64,000 nt of DNA from Candidatus Omnitrophota bacterium (GCA_023247055.1 JAHFHF010000003.1:36367-100366), one strand, 5' to 3'. Counted from the first letter of the stretch, positions 4,957-43,910 are shown. A program made the numbers and translations. The notes: generated from the sequence alone by a model not told the origin.

Positions 4957-5082
4957 ATCTCGGACATGTCATCCTCGCCTCTGCGTGGAAGCAGAGACTA
5001 GGATGCGCATCTCTGTTGGAGCTGTGTCATCCTCGAATGCTTTTATCGAGGATCTAAAGCATTAGATTCCCGCTAGAAGCAT

Positions 5083-5210
5083 GCGGGAATGACACAACGC
5101 CAACAGCGTTGCGCATGACCGTCTCGGTCTCCGCACAGAGGCGGGAATGACACAACGCCAACAGCGTTGCGCATGACCGTCTCGGTCTCCGCACAGAGGC
5201 GGGAATGACA
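5083..5210. repeat. 58-bp tandem direct repeat, 2.2 copies
   Basis: The unit gcgggaatgacacaacgccaacagcgttgcgcatgaccgtctcggtctccgcacagag begins at 5083 and 5141, and a partial copy begins at 5199. Each unit contains the hairpin caacgc-caaca-gcgttg and the reverse-oriented GTCATTCCCGC word. Confidence 0.85.
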
Positions 5211-14524: not shown

Positions 14525-14620
14525 GCTCGTCATGCTGAGTTCGAGATGTGTTTTTGTCATCCTGAGTCGCTTGAGTACTCTCAAGACGGCGAAGGATCTC
14601 AGAGCCGAGGCTCAAAAGGA
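14525..14620. repeat. GTCAT(C/G)CTGAG-family repeat copies between nasA and narK
   Basis: cgtcatgctgagttcgag, ttgtcatcctgagtcgc…ggcgaaggatctcagagc. Confidence 0.6.
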
Positions 14621-18632: not shown

Positions 18633-19169
18633 GTGCCGACATCAAATTGTCTGACCTATGAAACGATCGACGCCCGGACGTTTATAACCACGGGTGAAGC
18701 TGCGGGTACGGCAGGAGGCACCGTTCTTTTTTTTGGAATAGTCCGCAATCAAGCGCTGCAGCGACAGGTCACGCATTTAGTCTATGAGGCCTACGAGCCG
18801 CTGGCCGAACGGATGATCGATGAACTTATTTCAAAAGCCATGCGCATTTGGCCTCTTTTGCGCATTCAGGTTTTGCACCGGCTTGGACGCGTTGAGGCGG
18901 GTGAAATCGCTGTTGCGATTGAAGTCATCAGCAAACACCGCGATGAAGCTTACAAAGCCTCGCGCTTTTTAATCGACCAGATTAAGACCGATGTGCCTGT
19001 GTGGAAAAAAGAATATTTTGAAGACGGGTCTTACCGCTGGGGCCAGTGCGAGCACAAAACCGTAGCGGCCGGTCGCGACCGGCCACTACTTGACGGTACG
19101 CGTCATTGCGAGTCCACGGAAGCTGTTATGGCGGACGAAGCAATCTCAGGGCATGACATAGGGACGTGA
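18633..19169 (+). CDS. moaE: Molybdopterin synthase catalytic subunit
   Basis: MoaE fold motifs (…FFGIVRN…HLVYEAYEP…KHRDEAY…PVWKKE). GTG start 18633 follows the moaD stop. The last ~15 codons are encoded by a GTCATTGCGAG repeat. Confidence 0.7.
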   Translation: MPTSNCLTYETIDARTFITTGEAAGTAGGTVLFFGIVRNQALQRQVTHLVYEAYEPLAERMIDELISKAMRIWPLLRIQVLHRLGRVEAGEIAVAIEVISKHRDEAYKASRFLIDQIKTDVPVWKKEYFEDGSYRWGQCEHKTVAAGRDRPLLDGTRHCESTEAVMADEAISGHDIGT

Positions 19170-20518
19170 GAAATATGCTGGAACATCAAGAGGCGCTTGA
19201 AAAAATTTTTAAATTCTCAAAAACACTCCCCATCTCTCAAGTCCCCTTAGAAATGGCGTTGGGGCAGGTCTTGAGCAAAGACCTCCGCGCCTCCTTCCCA
19301 TTGCCTTCTTTCGATAATTCGGCGGTGGATGGTTATGCGCTGCGTTTCCCGGTTTGTCATTCTGAGCCCGGCAAGATTGGAGGGGCGAAGAATCTCAGAA
19401 CGAGATCCTTCGCTTCGCTTCCGCCACTAAAGCGTCGGCGGGCAAGCATGATGACAAATAATTTTACGCTCAAGGTCGCCGGAGAAATTGCGGCGGGTGC
19501 AAAAAATCCGCCCAAATTAATTCCCGGAACGGCCGCCCAGATTTTTACCGGTGCACCGGTCCCTGCCGGAACGGAAGCGGTGGTCATGCAGGAAAAGTGT
19601 GCTCGTGAAAATGGCCGTGTCCAATTTTCCGGCGCGCCCGTTCCGCTTGAAAATATCCGGTTCAAGGGCGAGGACATCCAAAAAGGGGAACTCCTTTTAA
19701 ACAAGGGAACAGTGTTAGGGGCGGCCCAGATTGGGCTTTTGGCCGCGGCCGGCTATGCGAAAGTTCCGGTCATTCGCAAACCGCAAGTGACAGTCCTGGC
19801 CACAGGCAATGAACTCAAAAAACCCGGAGAAAAAATAAAATCCGGTCAGATTTTTGATTCCAATACGCCGCTCTTGCGGGCACTTCTTGAGGAAAACGCA
19901 TGCGCCGTCTCTGCGCTGCCATCCGGCCGCGATTCTCGCGCCGCACTCCAAAGAAAAATCCGTCAAGGTCTCAAAGCCGATGTGTTTTTAATTGCCGGAG
20001 GCGTTTCCGTGGGGAAATACGACCTGGTCAAAGAGCTTTTGCGCGAAGCCGGGGTGCGCGAAATTTTTTGGAAGGTCAACATCAAGCCCGGCAAACCACT
20101 TTTTTTCGGCCGCAAAGGGAAAACGCTGGTCTTTGGCCTGCCGGGCAATCCAGTTTCCGTTTTTGTGACTTTTTCCGAGTATGTCAAACCCTGCCTTCAA
20201 AAGCTTCAAGGAAAAGCAGCGCACGCGGTTTTTGAAAAAGCAAAAATGGCTGCGGATTTTAAAAATGGCCCGCGCCGGCATTTTGTCCGCTGCGTGGTTG
20301 AGCAGGGGACTGCGGCGCCTCTCGCCGGGCAGGGGTCACACATGATTCGTTCGCTGGCGCAAGCCAATGCAATTTTGGAAGTTCCACCGAATGAATTCTT
20401 GCCTAAAAACCGGGAAGTGACTGTGAAATTGTTCGGTGAGCCTTTGCCAAGAAGTCTGTCGCATTCCGTAGTGGCAATTCATGAATTGCCACTACAAAAG
20501 GCAGTTCAAAAGCATTAA
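19166..20518 (+). CDS. moeA: Molybdopterin molybdotransferase carrying an in-frame ~105-bp repeat-element insertion
   Basis: DNSAVDGYALRF…IFTGAPVPAGTEAVVMQE…LPGNPVS. The insertion PVCHSEPGKIGGAKNLRTRSFASLPPLKRRRASMMTNN coincides with the repeat at 19353-19458. The C-terminal codons are supplied by a 28-bp palindrome. Confidence 0.8.
   Translation: MRNMLEHQEALEKIFKFSKTLPISQVPLEMALGQVLSKDLRASFPLPSFDNSAVDGYALRFPVCHSEPGKIGGAKNLRTRSFASLPPLKRRRASMMTNNFTLKVAGEIAAGAKNPPKLIPGTAAQIFTGAPVPAGTEAVVMQEKCARENGRVQFSGAPVPLENIRFKGEDIQKGELLLNKGTVLGAAQIGLLAAAGYAKVPVIRKPQVTVLATGNELKKPGEKIKSGQIFDSNTPLLRALLEENACAVSALPSGRDSRAALQRKIRQGLKADVFLIAGGVSVGKYDLVKELLREAGVREIFWKVNIKPGKPLFFGRKGKTLVFGLPGNPVSVFVTFSEYVKPCLQKLQGKAAHAVFEKAKMAADFKNGPRRHFVRCVVEQGTAAPLAGQGSHMIRSLAQANAILEVPPNEFLPKNREVTVKLFGEPLPRSLSHSVVAIHELPLQKAVQKH
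19353..19458. mobile_element. MITE-like element (TTGTCATTCTGAGC…GAAGAATCTC…GATCCTTCGCTTCGC…ATGACAAA) inserted in-frame inside moeA
   Basis: It shares termini and internal words with the intergenic copy at 56231-56313. It lies in a loop that is only ~10 aa long in ordinary MoeA proteins. Confidence 0.65.
20468..20495. repeat. 28-bp perfect palindrome GTAGTGGCAATTCATGAATTGCCACTAC (copy 1)
   Basis: Exact 14+14 bp inverted repeat. An identical copy is at 25690-25717. Confidence 0.9.
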
Positions 20519-20553: not shown

Positions 20554-21093
20554 ATGAAAACGTTTGCAGTTGTAGGCCGTAAAGGCGCCGGCCGGTCCGA
20601 ATCTCTGCTGGCGCTCGTGGCTGAATTGAAAAAACGCGGCCACCGCGTGGGCGTGGTGCGCCATTTACAGCGCGATGACCTGGAAATCGATCAGCCCGGC
20701 AAAGATACGTACAACTACCGGATGCAGGGTGCGGAGAAAGTCATTCTCTCGGGCCGCAAACGCTGCGCTGTTTTTGAAAACCGCAGCGAAGAATATTCGG
20801 CGGCCGAACTTTTGGAAGCTTTTCAGGGCTATGATTTCATCTTTTTTGAAGAATATTATTTAGCGGACATGCCTACGATTAAGATTCCCCATTCCATGGG
20901 GAAAAACCCGCAAGCGTTGGCGGGTTTCGTGGAGCAGTTTCCCCCCTCTAACTCCCCCCGAAGAGCACGGGGGGAGAAAAATGCTGCTCATTCTTTATTT
21001 CATCGCCGTGTTGTTGAGGAAGAGAAAAAAAGAAAATCAATTCTGGTTTCCTCCCCCGCGCTTTTCGGGGGAGGATCAAGGAGGGGGAAATGA
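20554..21093 (+). CDS. mobB: Molybdopterin-guanine dinucleotide biosynthesis adapter protein
   Basis: MKTFAVVGRKGAGRSESL P-loop. RBS AGGAG before ATG 20554. The C-terminal ~50 aa are a translation of the G/C-rich repeat element. Confidence 0.7.
   Translation: MKTFAVVGRKGAGRSESLLALVAELKKRGHRVGVVRHLQRDDLEIDQPGKDTYNYRMQGAEKVILSGRKRCAVFENRSEEYSAAELLEAFQGYDFIFFEEYYLADMPTIKIPHSMGKNPQALAGFVEQFPPSNSPRRARGEKNAAHSLFHRRVVEEEKKRKSILVSSPALFGGGSRRGK
20938..21089. repeat. G/C-hairpin-rich ~150-bp inverted-repeat element (family 2), copy 1
   Basis: tcccccctctaactccccccgaagagcacggggggagaaa … cctcccccgcgcttttcgggggaggatcaaggaggggga. The termini are mutually complementary, and there are two internal perfect hairpins. 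Confidence 0.7.
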
Positions 21094-21689
21094 GCGGCAT
21101 GGGCGCGATTATTCTCGCCGGCGGTGAAAGCCGCCGCATGGGTTTCGATAAAGCCTTGTTGCCGTATGCCGGTAAAACGTTATTGGAAGAGATCGTTCAG
21201 AGGGGCCGGCCTTTTTTTGAAGAGATTTATGTCGTTGTCGACCAGGCCAAAAAAACAAAGCGTCTTGACCTCTCAGGCGCCAAAGTTTTTGAAGACGTGG
21301 TTCCTAAAGCCGGTCCGCTGGCCGGGCTTTACACCGGCCTTTGTCACTCGGCATATCCGCTAAATATGGTTTTTACCGTCGATATGCCGTTTGTCGACGG
21401 AGCCTGTATTTTAGAACTCAAACACGCTGCGACGGAAAATCAATCCGACGTTTTTTGTTTTGAAACCAGCGATGGAAACGTGCAGCCTTTTCCCGGAATT
21501 TATGCCAAAGAATGCCTGCGCTGGATGCAGCTTTTGATGGATCAGAACACGCGATCCATGAAGCGGCTTTTTCAGATCGTTGACTGGCGCGCAATCCCTG
21601 CGGCCTCTGAAAAAGAACGAGTCTTTAAAAATTTAAATCAATGCGAAGATTACTGGAACACGCTGGATTTGCAGGGGAAGGCCCCATGA
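21090..21689 (+). CDS. mobA: Molybdenum cofactor guanylyltransferase
   Basis: GAIILAGGESRRMG…DKALLPY N-terminal MobA motif. Confidence 0.8.
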   Translation: MSGMGAIILAGGESRRMGFDKALLPYAGKTLLEEIVQRGRPFFEEIYVVVDQAKKTKRLDLSGAKVFEDVVPKAGPLAGLYTGLCHSAYPLNMVFTVDMPFVDGACILELKHAATENQSDVFCFETSDGNVQPFPGIYAKECLRWMQLLMDQNTRSMKRLFQIVDWRAIPAASEKERVFKNLNQCEDYWNTLDLQGKAP

Positions 21690-22670: not shown

Positions 22671-23431
22671 TTGCATTTATTTATTCGTCAGTCGGGCATG
22701 GCGGTGCCTCGGGTTATCTCGCGGTACTTTCTTTTTTTGCCGTTCCGCGCGACCCAATGGCTTCCAGCGCCTTGTGCCTGAATCTTCTGGTGGCGGGCCT
22801 TGCGTTTTATTCTTTCTATAAGGAGGGCTATTTTTCCTGGAAACTCACTTGGCCGTTTGTGCTCACTTCAGTTCCCGCGGCCTTTCTGGGCGGCCTGATT
22901 AAAATTCCGCCGGCTTTTTATGACAAGCTTCTGGCCGGCGCCCTTATCTTTGCGGGCTTTCGCCTGATGTTGGATGTCGAGAAAAAAAATAGCGGTTCTT
23001 ACAGCCTTTCTTTGTGCGGAGACAAAGACAGTCATGTACGCAGCGCTGTTGGCGCTGAGTCATTCCCGCCGCCTTTAACGGTTTCTCTTCCCACAGGCGC
23101 TGCGCTTGGTTTTCTTTCGGGGATGGTCGGTGTGGGCGGCGGAATTTTTTTAAGCCCGCTTTTGATCCTTTTCCGCTGGGCCGATCCGAAGACCGTGGCC
23201 GCGACGTCCGCTTTTTTTATTTGGGTCAATTCTTCTTCCGGGCTTTGGGGACGGTCTATGCGCGGAGGTTTTCAAATGCCGCCGCATCTTGTGCTGCTGC
23301 TCGCAGCGGCTTTTTTCGGAGGCATCGCGGGTTCACGGATCGGCGCCCGCCATTTTTCAGGCCTCTGGCTGAAGCGCATACTGGCCGTCGTGCTCTGGAT
23401 GGCCGTTATTAAACTGCTCAAACACGCCTAA
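22631..23431 (+). CDS. TauE/SafE (DUF81) family membrane permease
   Basis: Two-repeat polytopic membrane protein with VGHGGASGYL… and …MVGVGGGIFLSPLL motifs. TTG start is uncertain. Confidence 0.55.
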   Translation: MPDFILLAALTCLVAFIYSSVGHGGASGYLAVLSFFAVPRDPMASSALCLNLLVAGLAFYSFYKEGYFSWKLTWPFVLTSVPAAFLGGLIKIPPAFYDKLLAGALIFAGFRLMLDVEKKNSGSYSLSLCGDKDSHVRSAVGAESFPPPLTVSLPTGAALGFLSGMVGVGGGIFLSPLLILFRWADPKTVAATSAFFIWVNSSSGLWGRSMRGGFQMPPHLVLLLAAAFFGGIAGSRIGARHFSGLWLKRILAVVLWMAVIKLLKHA

Positions 23432-23802: not shown

Positions 23803-24111
23803 TCAGGCAGCTTTTTTTGAGGGGCGGATATGAATTTCAATTTCGCCGCTAAGGGCATCGACGATCTTAACGAGTGTTTCCAGGCTTAAATTGGAAGCTT
23901 CGTCATTTTCAATCTTGGCAATAAACGGCTGTGTCGCGCCTATGCGCCGGGCTAATTCCGCCTGAGTTATTCCTAACATCTCACGCAATTCGATAATCTG
24001 ACTAATGACTTTTAGACGCTGGACTCCGGCTTCTATTTTTTGCCGAAAACGCTTATTTTTCAGCAAAGGCTTCATCAACTCAGCGTGTGAAGGAATTCTC
24101 ATGGGTTTCAT
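23803..24111 (-). CDS. higA: HTH XRE-family antitoxin (HigA-like), copy 1
   Basis: LREMLGITQAELARRIGATQPFIAKIENDE helix-turn-helix. Lies downstream of the toxin and overlaps it by 4 bp. Confidence 0.7.
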   Translation of the reverse strand: MKPMRIPSHAELMKPLLKNKRFRQKIEAGVQRLKVISQIIELREMLGITQAELARRIGATQPFIAKIENDEASNLSLETLVKIVDALSGEIEIHIRPSKKAA

Positions 24112-24476
24112 TTTTCAACCTCACCGGTATAAAACAGGCCTTTATCCCACCTGCCGATAAAATCGTTCATGTTAGCTAAAGCTATGCTTATTTCTTGCTG
24201 CGGAACAGCATCTGTTTTCTTTCGAAATGCATGGACTAGCACGACATAATCTTTCAGCGTAAAAAAATAAAGGATACGTGACTGTTTAGGCCGCAGTTCA
24301 TAAAGCTTATTCCCCAAATAATCTCCGATGGGCCTCCTGACTTGCTCACCGACATCCGCAAGATAGGTGATGTACTCCAGGCATTTATGTTTTTCAGAAG
24401 GCGCTAATCCTTGAATGAACGTCCAGACTGGATTACGGCCTTTTTGATCAATGTAATACAGAACATGTTTACGCAT
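24108..24476 (-). CDS. higB: RelE/ParE-superfamily toxin (HigB / phage Gp49-like addiction-module killer), copy 1
   Basis: …KLYELRPKQSRILYFFTLKDYVVLVHAFRKKT… In the HigBA-type order the toxin gene comes first. Confidence 0.65.
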   Translation of the reverse strand: MRKHVLYYIDQKGRNPVWTFIQGLAPSEKHKCLEYITYLADVGEQVRRPIGDYLGNKLYELRPKQSRILYFFTLKDYVVLVHAFRKKTDAVPQQEISIALANMNDFIGRWDKGLFYTGEVEK

Positions 24477-24480
24477 AAAA

Positions 24481-24498
24481 TTATATAACCTTAAAGTT
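24481..24498. promoter_or_regulatory. Near-palindromic operator TATAACCTTAAAGTTATA upstream of the higB copy-1 start
   Basis: Within an AT-rich promoter region. The paralogous locus has ATAACTTTAAAGTTAT at 51196-51211. Confidence 0.45.
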
Positions 24499-24843
24499 AT
24501 AAAGTCAAATTTATAAAAATTATAATAATAAATAATTATATTAATTTAAAATTAAATAACAAGATTAAACGGCTGATTCGCAGGTATAAAATCGAAAAAC
24601 TAAAAATCGCTAGCAATTGCTAGACGGATAGAGGGAGATTGCCGGGTGTCGGGGGTAGACGTTATACTACGCTTTCACCCAAGAAAAACGATGCTAAACC
24701 AGCGCTTTTTGTTGAGTCCGGCACCTGCACAGTACCGAGAAGTTCACTGACACTTGAAAAACTTCGCCATCCGCACGGCTCGGTACCGGGCCTTTGCTGG
24801 CTGAACCACTCTATCTGACCAAATACATTGAGCGGAGTAACTG

Positions 24844-25689: not shown

Positions 25690-25717
25690 GTAGTGGCAAT
25701 TCATGAATTGCCACTAC
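25690..25717. repeat. 28-bp perfect palindrome GTAGTGGCAATTCATGAATTGCCACTAC (copy 2, extended to 38 bp at 25685-25722)
   Basis: Identical to 20468-20495. Confidence 0.9.
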
Positions 25718-25801
25718 AAATGAAGAAATAATTTTTTGACGGCCAAAAATGTTTGAATGCACTGCAAATTTTTGAATTAGAATGTTTCAGGGGTTAAATC
25801 C

Positions 25802-30085: not shown

Positions 30086-30137
30086 CGCGTAGCGTCATCC
30101 CCGAATGTCTTTGTCGGGGATCAGGAGAGAGAGTTAT

Positions 30138-31874: not shown

Positions 31875-31986
31875 AAAAAAGAGCGCCTTGTGACTCCGAT
31901 CACCGTAGGTCATTTGTCAGAATGACAAACGCAAATTTTTCTAAGCCAAGATTTTTAGGTTTAGGCATTAACGCCTCGTGTGAGTT

Positions 31987-32097
31987 TTCCCCCCTCTTAA
32001 TCTCCCCCCGGAGAGCGCGGGGGGAGAAATAAAAGCGGTTTTACTATTTCCTCCCCCGTGCTTTTCGGGGGAGGATTAAGGTGGGGGGAAGTAGCAT
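31987..32097. repeat. G/C-hairpin-rich inverted-repeat element (family 2), copy 2
   Basis: tttcccccctcttaatctccccccggagagcgcggggggagaaa…cctcccccgtgcttttcgggggaggattaaggtgggggga. Same family as 20938-21089 but ~45 bp shorter. Confidence 0.7.
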
Positions 32098-40175: not shown

Positions 40176-40268
40176 TCCCTCTCCCTTTGGGAGAGGGTTG
40201 GGGTGAGGGAGTGAATATCTGTTGGATTTCCCCTCATCCTAACCTTCTCCCCAGAGGGGAGAAGGAAT
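40176..40268. repeat. Structured GC-hairpin repeat element (family 3: GGGATGAGGG-loop-CCCTCATCC + CCTTCTCCC-NNN-GGGAGAAGG), copy 1
   Basis: ccctctccctttgggagaggg; gggttggggtgaggga…tcccctcatcctaacc; ccttctccccagaggggagaagg. A second copy is at 41471-41530. Confidence 0.65.
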
Positions 40269-41470: not shown

Positions 41471-41530
41471 CGGGATGAGGGAAGAACATGTTTCCCCTCA
41501 TCCTAGCCTTCTCCCGGAGGGAGAAGGAAT
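41471..41530. repeat. Family-3 GC-hairpin repeat element, copy 2
   Basis: gggatgagggaagaacatgtttcccctcatcc + ccttctcccggagggagaagg, in the murQ-anmK spacer. Confidence 0.65.
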
Positions 41531-42427
41531 ATTCTGTAAAGCTTTTGCTAAAAAACCAGCAGCGGCGGCTAATTTTTTTTGAGCAGCACTTACATTCAAA
41601 CCGGTGCGCGCCATCAGAATGGCGGTTTTGGCATTACATCCGGACTGAGCCAGCAGGGTTTTGGCTTTTTTTTCCGGCACGCCGCCCAAATGAGCGACAA
41701 GCCGCAGCGCCCGCGCTTCGAGTTTTTTGGATTTAGGCTGCAAGTCGATCATCCAGTTCTGATAGACCTTGCCCAGCTGCACCATGGAGAGAACAGTCAG
41801 CCGGTTCAGGATCAACTTCGTGGCCGTGCCTGCCTTCAGGCGGGTTGAACCTGAAATCACCTCAGGTCCTGTAACGGCGGCAATAACGCATTCGGCCGGT
41901 ACGTTTGACGGAATTTTTTTATTGCAGCTCACCAGGATGGTGCGGACTTTTCTCTTTTGCGCGGCTTCGAGCGCGCCGTAAACAAAAGGCGTGACACCGC
42001 TGGCGGCAATGCCGACCACCACATCCTTAGACGTTAATTTTTTTAAAAAAATACGGTAACCGTCGGTGCGGTCATCCTCAGCGCCTTCTTTTGAGCGGAA
42101 AACGGCGGATTTGCCGCCGGCCATAATGCCCTGAACGAGGGAAGGCGACGTACTGAAAGTCGGCGGGCATTCGGCGGCTTCAATCACGCCCAGCCGTCCG
42201 CTGGTGCCTGCGCCGGCAAAAAAAAGCCGGCCGCCGCCGCGTAGCGCGGCCGTGATGATCCGCACGGCCCGGGTCACCTGCTTTTTTTCACGGTAAACCG
42301 CCCGGGCTACTGAGGCGTCTTCGCGGTGCATGAGATCGAAAGCTTTTTCGATCGAAATGCGGTCGATTTTGCGGGTGCGCGGGTTGGCTTGTTCGGTGCT
42401 GAGCCTGCCGTAAGAAATGCCTGCCAT
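41498..42427 (-). CDS. murQ: N-acetylmuramic acid 6-phosphate etherase (SIS domain)
   Basis: …FFAGAGTSGRLGVIEAAECPPTF… SIS-domain and MurQ pattern. Confidence 0.85.
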   Translation of the reverse strand: MAGISYGRLSTEQANPRTRKIDRISIEKAFDLMHREDASVARAVYREKKQVTRAVRIITAALRGGGRLFFAGAGTSGRLGVIEAAECPPTFSTSPSLVQGIMAGGKSAVFRSKEGAEDDRTDGYRIFLKKLTSKDVVVGIAASGVTPFVYGALEAAQKRKVRTILVSCNKKIPSNVPAECVIAAVTGPEVISGSTRLKAGTATKLILNRLTVLSMVQLGKVYQNWMIDLQPKSKKLEARALRLVAHLGGVPEKKAKTLLAQSGCNAKTAILMARTGLNVSAAQKKLAAAAGFLAKALQNIPSPSGRRLG

Positions 42428-42623
42428 GCAAGGCAGAATAGCACGCTCTATTCTGGGGACACAATACTTAATTCAGGTTTACTACCCCATCCGACTCCAT
42501 ATTAAAAGAGTGTGAGCCGGAAATGACGGTCGAGAAACTGCTTGGACTTGCAGGCTATTCGCAGCCCCGGCTAGAAGGAACCGGCTGAAGGCTGTGTGAT
42601 TTAGGGAGAGGCCTGGGCAGCGG

Positions 42624-43487: not shown

Positions 43488-43540
43488 AGCACCTATTTTT
43501 GATGAGGTCTATCATAAAGAAGCGGCCGCTCAGACGCAAT

Positions 43541-43684
43541 AAGCAGCCTGTGTTGCCGGCGCATCTTCACGGTGCATCAGATCAAAGGCCTGTTCAATCG
43601 AAAGCCGGTCAATTTTGCGGGTGCGCGGGTTGGCTTGTTCGGTGCTGAGCCGGCCGTAAGAAATGCCTGCCATACAGGGCAGAA
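43541..43684 (-). pseudogene. murQ: Truncated duplicate of the murQ 5' end (first ~35 codons plus upstream region)
   Basis: The reverse complement encodes MAGISYGRLSTEQANPRTRKIDRLSIEQAFDLMHREDA… then diverges and stops. It is ~85% identical at the DNA level to 42306-42495, including a perfect 40-bp core. Confidence 0.75.
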
Positions 43685-43910
43685 TAGCAGGGCCTATTTG
43701 GAGGATACAATATTAATCTCATCCATGCCAGTTGCCTCATATTAAAACCTTACCGTAGCTTGAATGGCCAGTGACTCGATGCAGAGTCCTGCATAAACTC
43801 CCCAGTCAGTTTTGCCGATATAAACATATCCGTTTTCCATAGAATCTTTTTGGCCGTAAGGAGTTACGTCAATTTTTATCAGCCGTTTCACACATGGAAT
43901 CAGCTCGATC

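Follow-up and report, generated by a model that had tools for sequence, protein, structure and literature searches.

A REP-like palindromic repeat inserted in frame in a variable loop of MoeA from a Candidatus Omnitrophota bacterium is probably tolerated

We analysed a stretch of 64,000 nucleotides from a Candidatus Omnitrophota bacterium (GCA_023247055.1 JAHFHF010000003.1:36367-100366), referred to here as the window, in which moeA, the gene of the molybdenum insertase, carries a palindromic repeat inside its coding sequence without loss of the reading frame. The moeA open reading frame (ORF) lies on the plus strand at 19166-20518 and runs uninterrupted for 450 codons from a GTG at 19166; an alternative start, an ATG at 19175, yields the 447-aa form of the database entries, one of which (P0001) is 100% identical to the window protein. 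The translation matches Pfam MoeA_N (E-value 1.3e-41), MoCF_biosynth (3.9e-28) and MoeA_C (8.6e-15), all beyond the cut-offs, and structure comparison returned MoeA, Cnx1E and GephE as fold matches. The 158 model positions of MoeA_N are spread over 190 residues of the window protein, so that about 32 residues are surplus. A sequence-only reading of the same DNA had described a 106-bp repeat, resembling a miniature inverted-repeat transposable element (MITE), in frame within the loop that follows the DGYA motif of MoeA; the ORF, the Pfam matches and the further repeat copies bear out an in-frame repeat in a genuine MoeA at this variable loop.

The sequence at 19353-19458 is as that reading quoted it, but its length has to be corrected, since two flanking bases were included on either side. 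Conservation ends at a (T/C)GTC tag, beyond which the flanks of 192 units of the family described below are unconserved, and we therefore define the element from tag to tag (TGTC...GACA) as the 102 nt at 19355-19456 on the plus strand, corresponding to codons C64-T97. It encodes the 34-aa peptide CHSEPGKIGGAKNLRTRSFASLPPLKRRRASMMT, which is strongly basic, with 8 K/R and 1 D/E (net +7), and is flanked by P, V, N and N, which may be original residues of the loop. The element consists of two units resembling repetitive extragenic palindromes (REPs) in inverted orientation, one of the ATTCT and one of the ATCCT type, and is thus a heterodimer. The left unit (19355-19396, plus strand) is composed of a TGTC tag, the outer strand ATTCT GAGC, an 18-nt loop, the inner strand CGA AGAAT and a CTC tail; in its stem ATTCTGAGC pairs with GCGAAGAAT, a tandem G.A mismatch included. 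It was matched at 19353-19398 with 40.8 bits (E=4e-9) by R1, a covariance model built solely from units in other phyla. A 5-nt spacer, AGAAC (19397-19401, plus strand), separates it from the right unit (19402-19456, minus strand), which was recognized by R1 and by alignment of relatives as an inverted unit of the ATCCT/AGGAT type. The outer strand of the right unit reads ATCAT, not ATCCT, leaving one stem mismatch, and we consider this unit decayed since R1 gives it 13.2 bits and E=0.22 (19400-19458, minus strand).

The right unit contains a private segment of 27 nt or 9 codons, TCCGCCACTAAAGCGTCGGCGGGCAAG, at 19420-19446 (plus strand), which is missing from all six aligned relatives, and the element is thereby made of 75 canonical and 27 private nucleotides, both multiples of three. 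That the segment is itself a nested mobile hairpin was considered and rejected, as it occurs once in the window. A comparable piece, TCCGCCAC...GGCGG, is found at the equivalent position in a related locus (L004/P0029).

Three other sites of the window repeat the termini TTGTCATTCTGAGC...GATGACAA and the central sequence GAAGAATCTC...GAGATCCTTCGCTTCGC of the moeA element; its identity to other window copies is 85-91% over 33-34 nt. An 80-nt intergenic dimer lies at 56231-56310 (plus strand) downstream of pckA and is matched by R1 at 56281-56312 on the minus strand (E=1.4e-11) and at 56229-56279 on the plus strand (E=1.7e-4); the termini and core which the sequence-only reading had ascribed in common to this copy and the moeA element are borne out. 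A long dimer at 53547-53652 (plus strand) overlaps the 3' tail of the ORF at 52005-53669 and is the nearest relative of the moeA left unit, and a single intergenic unit is located at 14555-14597 (plus strand) upstream of an MFS transporter gene (R1, 36 bits, E=9e-8). For the terminal motif we counted 9 occurrences in the window, against an expectation of 0.85 from shuffles. Units of sibling families are present at 5025-5094 and 30093-30121, with the forms TGTCATCCTCGA...TCGAGGATCTA, TGTCATTCCCGC...GCGGGAATCTA and CGTCATCCCCGA...TCGGGGATCAG; the ATTCCCGC...GCGGGAAT form resembles Neisseria dRS3.

Units of the same kind are found far beyond this organism. Scanning one genome per species with GTCATTCTGAGC-N(8-38)-CGAAGAATCTC gave at least 120 loci (L006-L125) and, among the matches listed, the GTCATTCTGAGC...CGAAGAATCTC unit occurs in metagenome-assembled genomes from over 15 groups of phylum or class level, as judged by record titles. 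The unit can be written as a (T/C)GTC tag, a stem AxyCTGAGC, a loop, GCGAAGy'x'T and a CTC tail. Its loop ranges across the family from 3 to more than 40 nt, and the minimal loop, GAA, produces GCGAAGC, a well-known and very stable DNA mini-hairpin; 56286-56310 is one of the canonical copies with this loop. In the same listed matches the outer xy is complementary to the inner y'x' in 207 of 208 units; the search pattern itself required the TT/AA variant, and outside that variant about 49 of about 50 units are complementary. The variants seen are TT/AA, TC/GA, CC/GG, TG/CA and CT/AG. Among 67 scanned partner units the tag is TGTC in 53 and CGTC in 14, and the CTC tail is present in all 29 whose inner anchor was placed correctly. 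The loose expression used for partner units was mis-anchored on internal CGA repeats, so only 31 well-anchored cases were counted, and in 22 of these the partner is unlike its mate. Since mates often differ and yet xy and y'x' remain complementary, the pairing constraint acts within units and not between the ends of the element. When 62 units are aligned, 97.5% of the cells are paired, a value reached in 0 of 500 shuffles; the xy pairs of this alignment were pre-filtered, whereas pair 15-29, with 9 double changes, was not. In Pedobacter nototheniae (L018:3513-3842) we also observed three tandem compound copies with a period of about 135 nt, each with two GTCATTCTGAG heads.

The moeA copy is an insertion. 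In the nearest orthologue (P0002, 65% identity) the loop is 17 aa long, ICFQPKDLKKGALALEF, where the window protein has 44 aa, and the loops of uninserted homologues span 8-19 aa; orthologous operons are also found without the element. The sequence-only reading had named two outcomes that would overturn it, a segment that close relatives share with no repeat-like flanks and a length that breaks the frame. Both checks speak for that reading: the nearest orthologue is without the segment, and the element measures 102 nt in a frame that is intact over 450 codons. A second assembly from ENA (L001), 99.976% identical over 8361 nt, also has the insert and differs from the window at two positions, 19425 (P87Q, inside the insert) and 20397 (F411Y); because this assembly carries the insert too, with one single-nucleotide polymorphism (SNP) inside it, an assembly artefact is not the explanation. 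A metagenome scan with a degenerate FDNSAVDGYALRFP pattern, aimed at close strains with or without the insert, returned no match.

The same loop has received inserts in other lineages. Among 120 MoeA homologues, 12 have inserts of at least 8 aa at exactly this alignment position, and other internal sites of the protein show scattered single cases or one clade-wide difference. R1 detected both units of the family inside the moeA loop of L003 (P0004), L127 (P0026) and L126 (P0039), and no family units in L002, L005, L128 or L129. In the window, L003, L127 and L126 the insert starts 6 to 17 nt past the conserved Arg-Phe codons, the reading frames differ, and in P0039 the tags are CGTC and the order of the units is opposite. 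Insert-bearing proteins are scattered among uninserted ones in a neighbour-joining tree. One ancestral insertion behind all of these inserts is rejected for the window and for P0039, for which junctions, frames or unit order differ. From the sequences we count at least three independent insertions of the family, namely in the window, in P0004/P0026/P0029 and in P0039/P0042; the P0004/P0026/P0029 group, with its common GACATG 3' junction, may go back to a single event. Both members of the sister pairs P0004/P0075 and P0039/P0042 keep an open frame. A pair of moeA genes with 94% identity (L128, P0031, 1501-2811; L129, P0065, 1501-2745) differs at the loop by a cleanly inserted stretch of 105 nt (35 codons) that consists of two other hairpins and has GT at both edges; judged by sequence, the two genes constitute a recent pair of filled and empty sites. 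A metagenome scan for unit-bearing MoeA loops found only the known P0039 contig and two chance intergenic matches. Elsewhere in MoeA, P0082 has a MITE-like peptide (PVILRVPA...GKSEESRKGSFACLPARQASLRVT) at alignment positions 187-190, between the N-terminal region and domain III, and P0120, P0117 and P0065 have other single inserts.

As to the class of repeat, the closest description is that of the CGTC-tagged superfamily of REPs by Di Nocera, De Gregorio and Rocco (2013; PMC3733652), to which Neisseria dRS3 and the Rickettsia elements RPE-4 and RPE-6 belong. Its members have a tag that is sometimes TGTC, an 8-9 bp stem starting A-T, T-A, a loop of 4-5 nt and a 3-nt tail CCA; they are mostly inverted dimers, often heterodimers, and their in-frame intragenic copies encode 20-30 aa (PMC3733652). 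They were reported in 5 phyla, and no dedicated transposase is known, the mobiliser being left open (PMC3733652). Our comparison follows the text description of this superfamily (PMC3733652), and on this basis the moeA element has the one-sided unpaired tag (TGTC at 19355-19358, GACA at 19453-19456) and a stem that starts A-T, T-A, with one mismatch in the right unit; inverted dimers, often heterodimers, and in-frame copies within ORFs are likewise common to both. On the other hand the tail is CTC instead of CCA, although its 3-nt length matches, the stem contains a tandem G.A/A.G mismatch, and the minimal loop makes GCGAAGC. Beside the 4-5 nt of the superfamily, the loop is GAA in canonical copies, 18 nt in the moeA left unit and highly variable overall, and the distribution over more than 15 groups, among the matches listed, is wider than 5 phyla.

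Rickettsia palindromic elements (RPEs) are selfish repeats that interrupt unrelated housekeeping genes without breaking the frame (Ogata et al. 2000 Science 290:347, cited by PMC10969869); their segments are translated and thought compatible with fold and function, RPE-1 being about 150 bp and Rickettsia-specific (PMC10969869). The moeA element is similarly an in-frame palindromic element for which the host fold appears to be kept, as judged by model and alignment, but it is a 102-nt REP dimer in an uncultivated bacterium, and RPE-1 would belong to a different sequence family. REPINs, that is REP doublets forming hairpins, have a GTAG tag, are tied to a single-copy gene for a REP-associated tyrosine transposase (RAYT) and are described as extragenic (Bertels and Rainey 2011; PMC3116915). 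Two inverted REP hairpins with a short spacer that could form one long hairpin, non-autonomy and the lack of target duplication are shared with the moeA element; its tag, however, is TGTC and not GTAG, and among the window ORFs scanned, a scan that was incomplete, no RAYT was found; on both counts it falls outside the strict definition of a REPIN. Among bacterial MITEs, Correia/NEMIS, ERIC and Coxiella QMITE1 show occasional in-frame fusion with host ORFs (review PMC10969869). The moeA element is small and has terminal inverted repeats, TTGTCAT...ATGACAA, as MITEs do, but no target-site duplication was seen at the moeA, L003, L126 or L127 junctions or around the 192 units, neither a conserved target nor a related or parent insertion sequence (IS) was found, and covariation lies within the halves and not between the termini. 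With target duplication and parent IS not found, it is not a classical MITE, and the earlier "MITE-like repeat" is better described as a REP-like inverted dimer. The moeA case falls in with the known intragenic REP-like and RPE-like elements.

Whether MoeA is still functional was approached through its residues, predicted structure and rate of change. In an alignment with E. coli MoeA the insert is placed in subdomain II, after R66 and before P73. Residues D55, T128, R165, D170, E216 and D256 of the window protein correspond to E. coli D59, T100, R137, D142, E188 and D228 and are conserved, as are D286, K303, K307, R375 and S391, which correspond to D259, K275, K279, R350 and S371. In E. coli, D59, T100, R137, D142, E188, D228, K279, R350 and S371 are residues mutated in MoeA PDB entries, and D259 and K275 are further positions from mutagenesis of MoeA. 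In the AlphaFold model the mean predicted local distance difference test score (pLDDT) is 89, with 48-61 for the insert and more than 90 for the remainder. Identities to three outgroups are 48.1/47.1/44.5% for the window MoeA against 48.0/46.2/42.1% for the uninserted sister, which indicates that the window protein is not evolving faster than its sister lineage.

These data suggest a tolerated, selection-filtered, in-frame repeat insertion, in which MoeA most likely retains its molybdenum-insertase function; we hold this to be the likely explanation. We propose that a non-autonomous palindromic repeat, an inverted heterodimer of TGTC/CGTC-tagged REP-like units, entered the part of moeA that encodes a variable loop of subdomain II, bounded by the DGYALR strand on one side and the KVAGE strand on the other. 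The 102-nt element is read in one of its open frames, so that moeA stays in frame, and it would be translated into a 34-residue basic loop that the model predicts to be probably disordered. Four of the six frames of the canonical dimer are open, so that about 1 in 5 random insertions would preserve the frame. Insertions that break the frame or hit structure would be purged by selection, and the present copy may have survived because this loop best tolerates extra residues in MoeA. Movement was probably as single-stranded hairpin DNA with a trans-acting enzyme, a mode that we propose because there is no target duplication. No transposase family was found by Pfam and NCBIfam among 20 ORFs and 5 concatenated ORF sets, the remaining ORFs of the window having been read by eye only.

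The alternative that survives best is that the insertion cripples or inactivates MoeA, which would then be an early pseudogene or have its function supplied by another moeA in the genome; we regard this as unlikely, and of the choice between tolerated and inactivating offered by the sequence-only reading the second is far less supported. Several observations do weigh on its side and against retained function, which we infer from sequence and model. The insert begins 9 residues past the catalytic Asp55 (E. coli D59), within subdomain II, which is mobile and borders the active site; one wall of the active-site cleft is made by this subdomain, which shifts in the course of catalysis (PMC9458074), and a 34-residue basic loop there could interfere. 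Both SNPs found between the two assemblies in 8.4 kb fall in moeA and are nonsynonymous, P87Q and F411Y (p ~0.015, a rough estimate from a small sample); uniform neutral change would not lead one to expect this, and they could hint at relaxed constraint. The ORF also has a repeat-derived C-terminal tail: a GTAG-type REP, GTAGTGGCAATTCATGAATTGCCACTAC, at 20468-20498 (plus strand) makes up a non-homologous 23-aa tail, for which AlphaFold gives a pLDDT below 50. Should the insertion be recent, little can be concluded from the intact frame and the unaccelerated rate, given that about 1 in 5 insertions would keep the frame by chance. Finally, our view is of 64 kb of the genome, and a second intact moeA may lie outside the window.

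Against inactivation stand the 450 codons free of stops and frameshifts, the probed catalytic residues, which are kept, the rate, which shows no acceleration relative to the sister lineage, the 12 of 120 otherwise intact homologues with inserts in this loop, and the open frames in both P0004/P0075 and P0039/P0042. The genomic surroundings point the same way. The gene order is moaA-moaD-moaE-moeA-mobB-mobA-moaC-moaB, a molybdenum cofactor (Moco) operon in which the ORFs are open and the expected Pfam domains present, and directly upstream a NasC/Fdh-alpha-type molybdopterin oxidoreductase, NirB and an Fe-S subunit are encoded by open ORFs; nitrate transporter genes, judged from reading translations only, are upstream as well. 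From their sequences the upstream molybdoenzyme genes would be clients of the cofactor pathway.

That the basic peptide has gained a function, as an interaction surface or in substrate access, and is kept by positive selection appears improbable. The charge of the peptide (+7 net), a short helix at LKRRRAS hinted at with low confidence by AlphaFold, the recurrence of inserts at the loop and the one amino-acid polymorphism inside the insert could be taken in its favour, but the inserts of other lineages show no relationship in peptide sequence, frame or orientation, the pLDDT of the insert is 48-61 and the nearest relative manages without it. Because the loop inserts are unrelated across lineages, the pattern fits tolerance and not a selected function, and the "exaptation" of the sequence-only reading is better replaced by tolerated insertion.

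A role at the level of RNA or DNA, in which the hairpin in the operon transcript is a signal for processing, stability or pausing and its translation is incidental, seems more improbable still. The element does fold as RNA with -42.8 kcal/mol (z = -3.7), several genes of the operon have repeats at their ends, and REPs have been proposed as RNA elements, usually just downstream of ORFs (PMC3733652). However, the terminator and promoter scan predicted no plus-strand terminator-like site within the element, at gathering thresholds Rfam matched nothing in the whole window, an element 190 nt inside a coding sequence is unlikely to be a selected processing site, and orthologous operons do without the element. 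The remaining reading, in which the long loop is ancestral and similar to the repeat by chance or the assembly is chimeric, could appeal to natural loop-length variation among homologues but is effectively refuted by the R1 match at E=4e-9, the identity to the window copies, the absence from the nearest orthologue and the presence in the second assembly.

Other repeats in the window also extend or interrupt coding sequences. At the 3' end of moaE (19062-19169) the last 35 codons or so are formed by a GTAG REP (19062-19089) and a CGTC unit (19101-19144), and this repeat-derived extension runs into the overlap with the start of moeA. The 31-nt GTAG REP GTAGTGGCAATTCATGAATTGCCACTACAAA is found in identical form at 20468-20498 and at 25690-25720. 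The C-terminal tail of MobB, which overlaps the start of mobA, consists of paired C-rich and G-rich hairpin repeats, TTTCCCCCC...GGGGGGAG, at 20938-21095, with relatives at 31985-32095, 40227-40251 and 41491-41515. A second internal in-frame case is the TauE ORF at 22757-23431, with about 21 extra residues, GSYSLSLCGDKDSHVRSAVGAESF, in a central loop compared with the orthologue in L005; they coincide with a repeat at 23010-23070, the other copies of which are tandem 58-mers at 5083-5198. Larger repeats of the window include two paralogous pairs of Gp49 (HigB-like) and helix-turn-helix toxin-antitoxin genes (23803-24476 and 51214-51887), each adjoining one arm of a 36-nt inverted repeat (24478-24513 and 51178-51213), and a direct repeat of 182 nt with 81% identity (42294-42475 and 43540-43721; spacing 1246 nt).

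Two bolder ideas we mention as rather unlikely. The loop of MoeA subdomain II could be a preferred landing place for several families of hairpin repeats, or the basic peptide may have been recruited to adjust access of the substrate or binding of a partner. Separately, the cross-phylum TGTC unit, with its GCGAAGC mini-hairpin and its covariation within units, could point to an enzyme, widely conserved and acting on single-stranded DNA, by which the "orphan" REPs of the CGTC type are moved.

The moeA element would be a well-bounded case of selfish palindromic DNA translated inside an enzyme of an essential pathway, outside Rickettsia and the proteobacteria. It also carries a caution for repeat-rich uncultivated genomes, which may hold many repeat-derived ORF extensions and internal segments that are not functional novelties. 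The cross-phylum, internally covarying unit may offer a sequence handle on what mobilises CGTC-type REPs. Repeated insertions in different lineages mark this loop as a permissive site of the molybdenum insertase fold, which may be of help to protein engineering and to the annotation of loop "inserts" in metagenome-assembled genomes.

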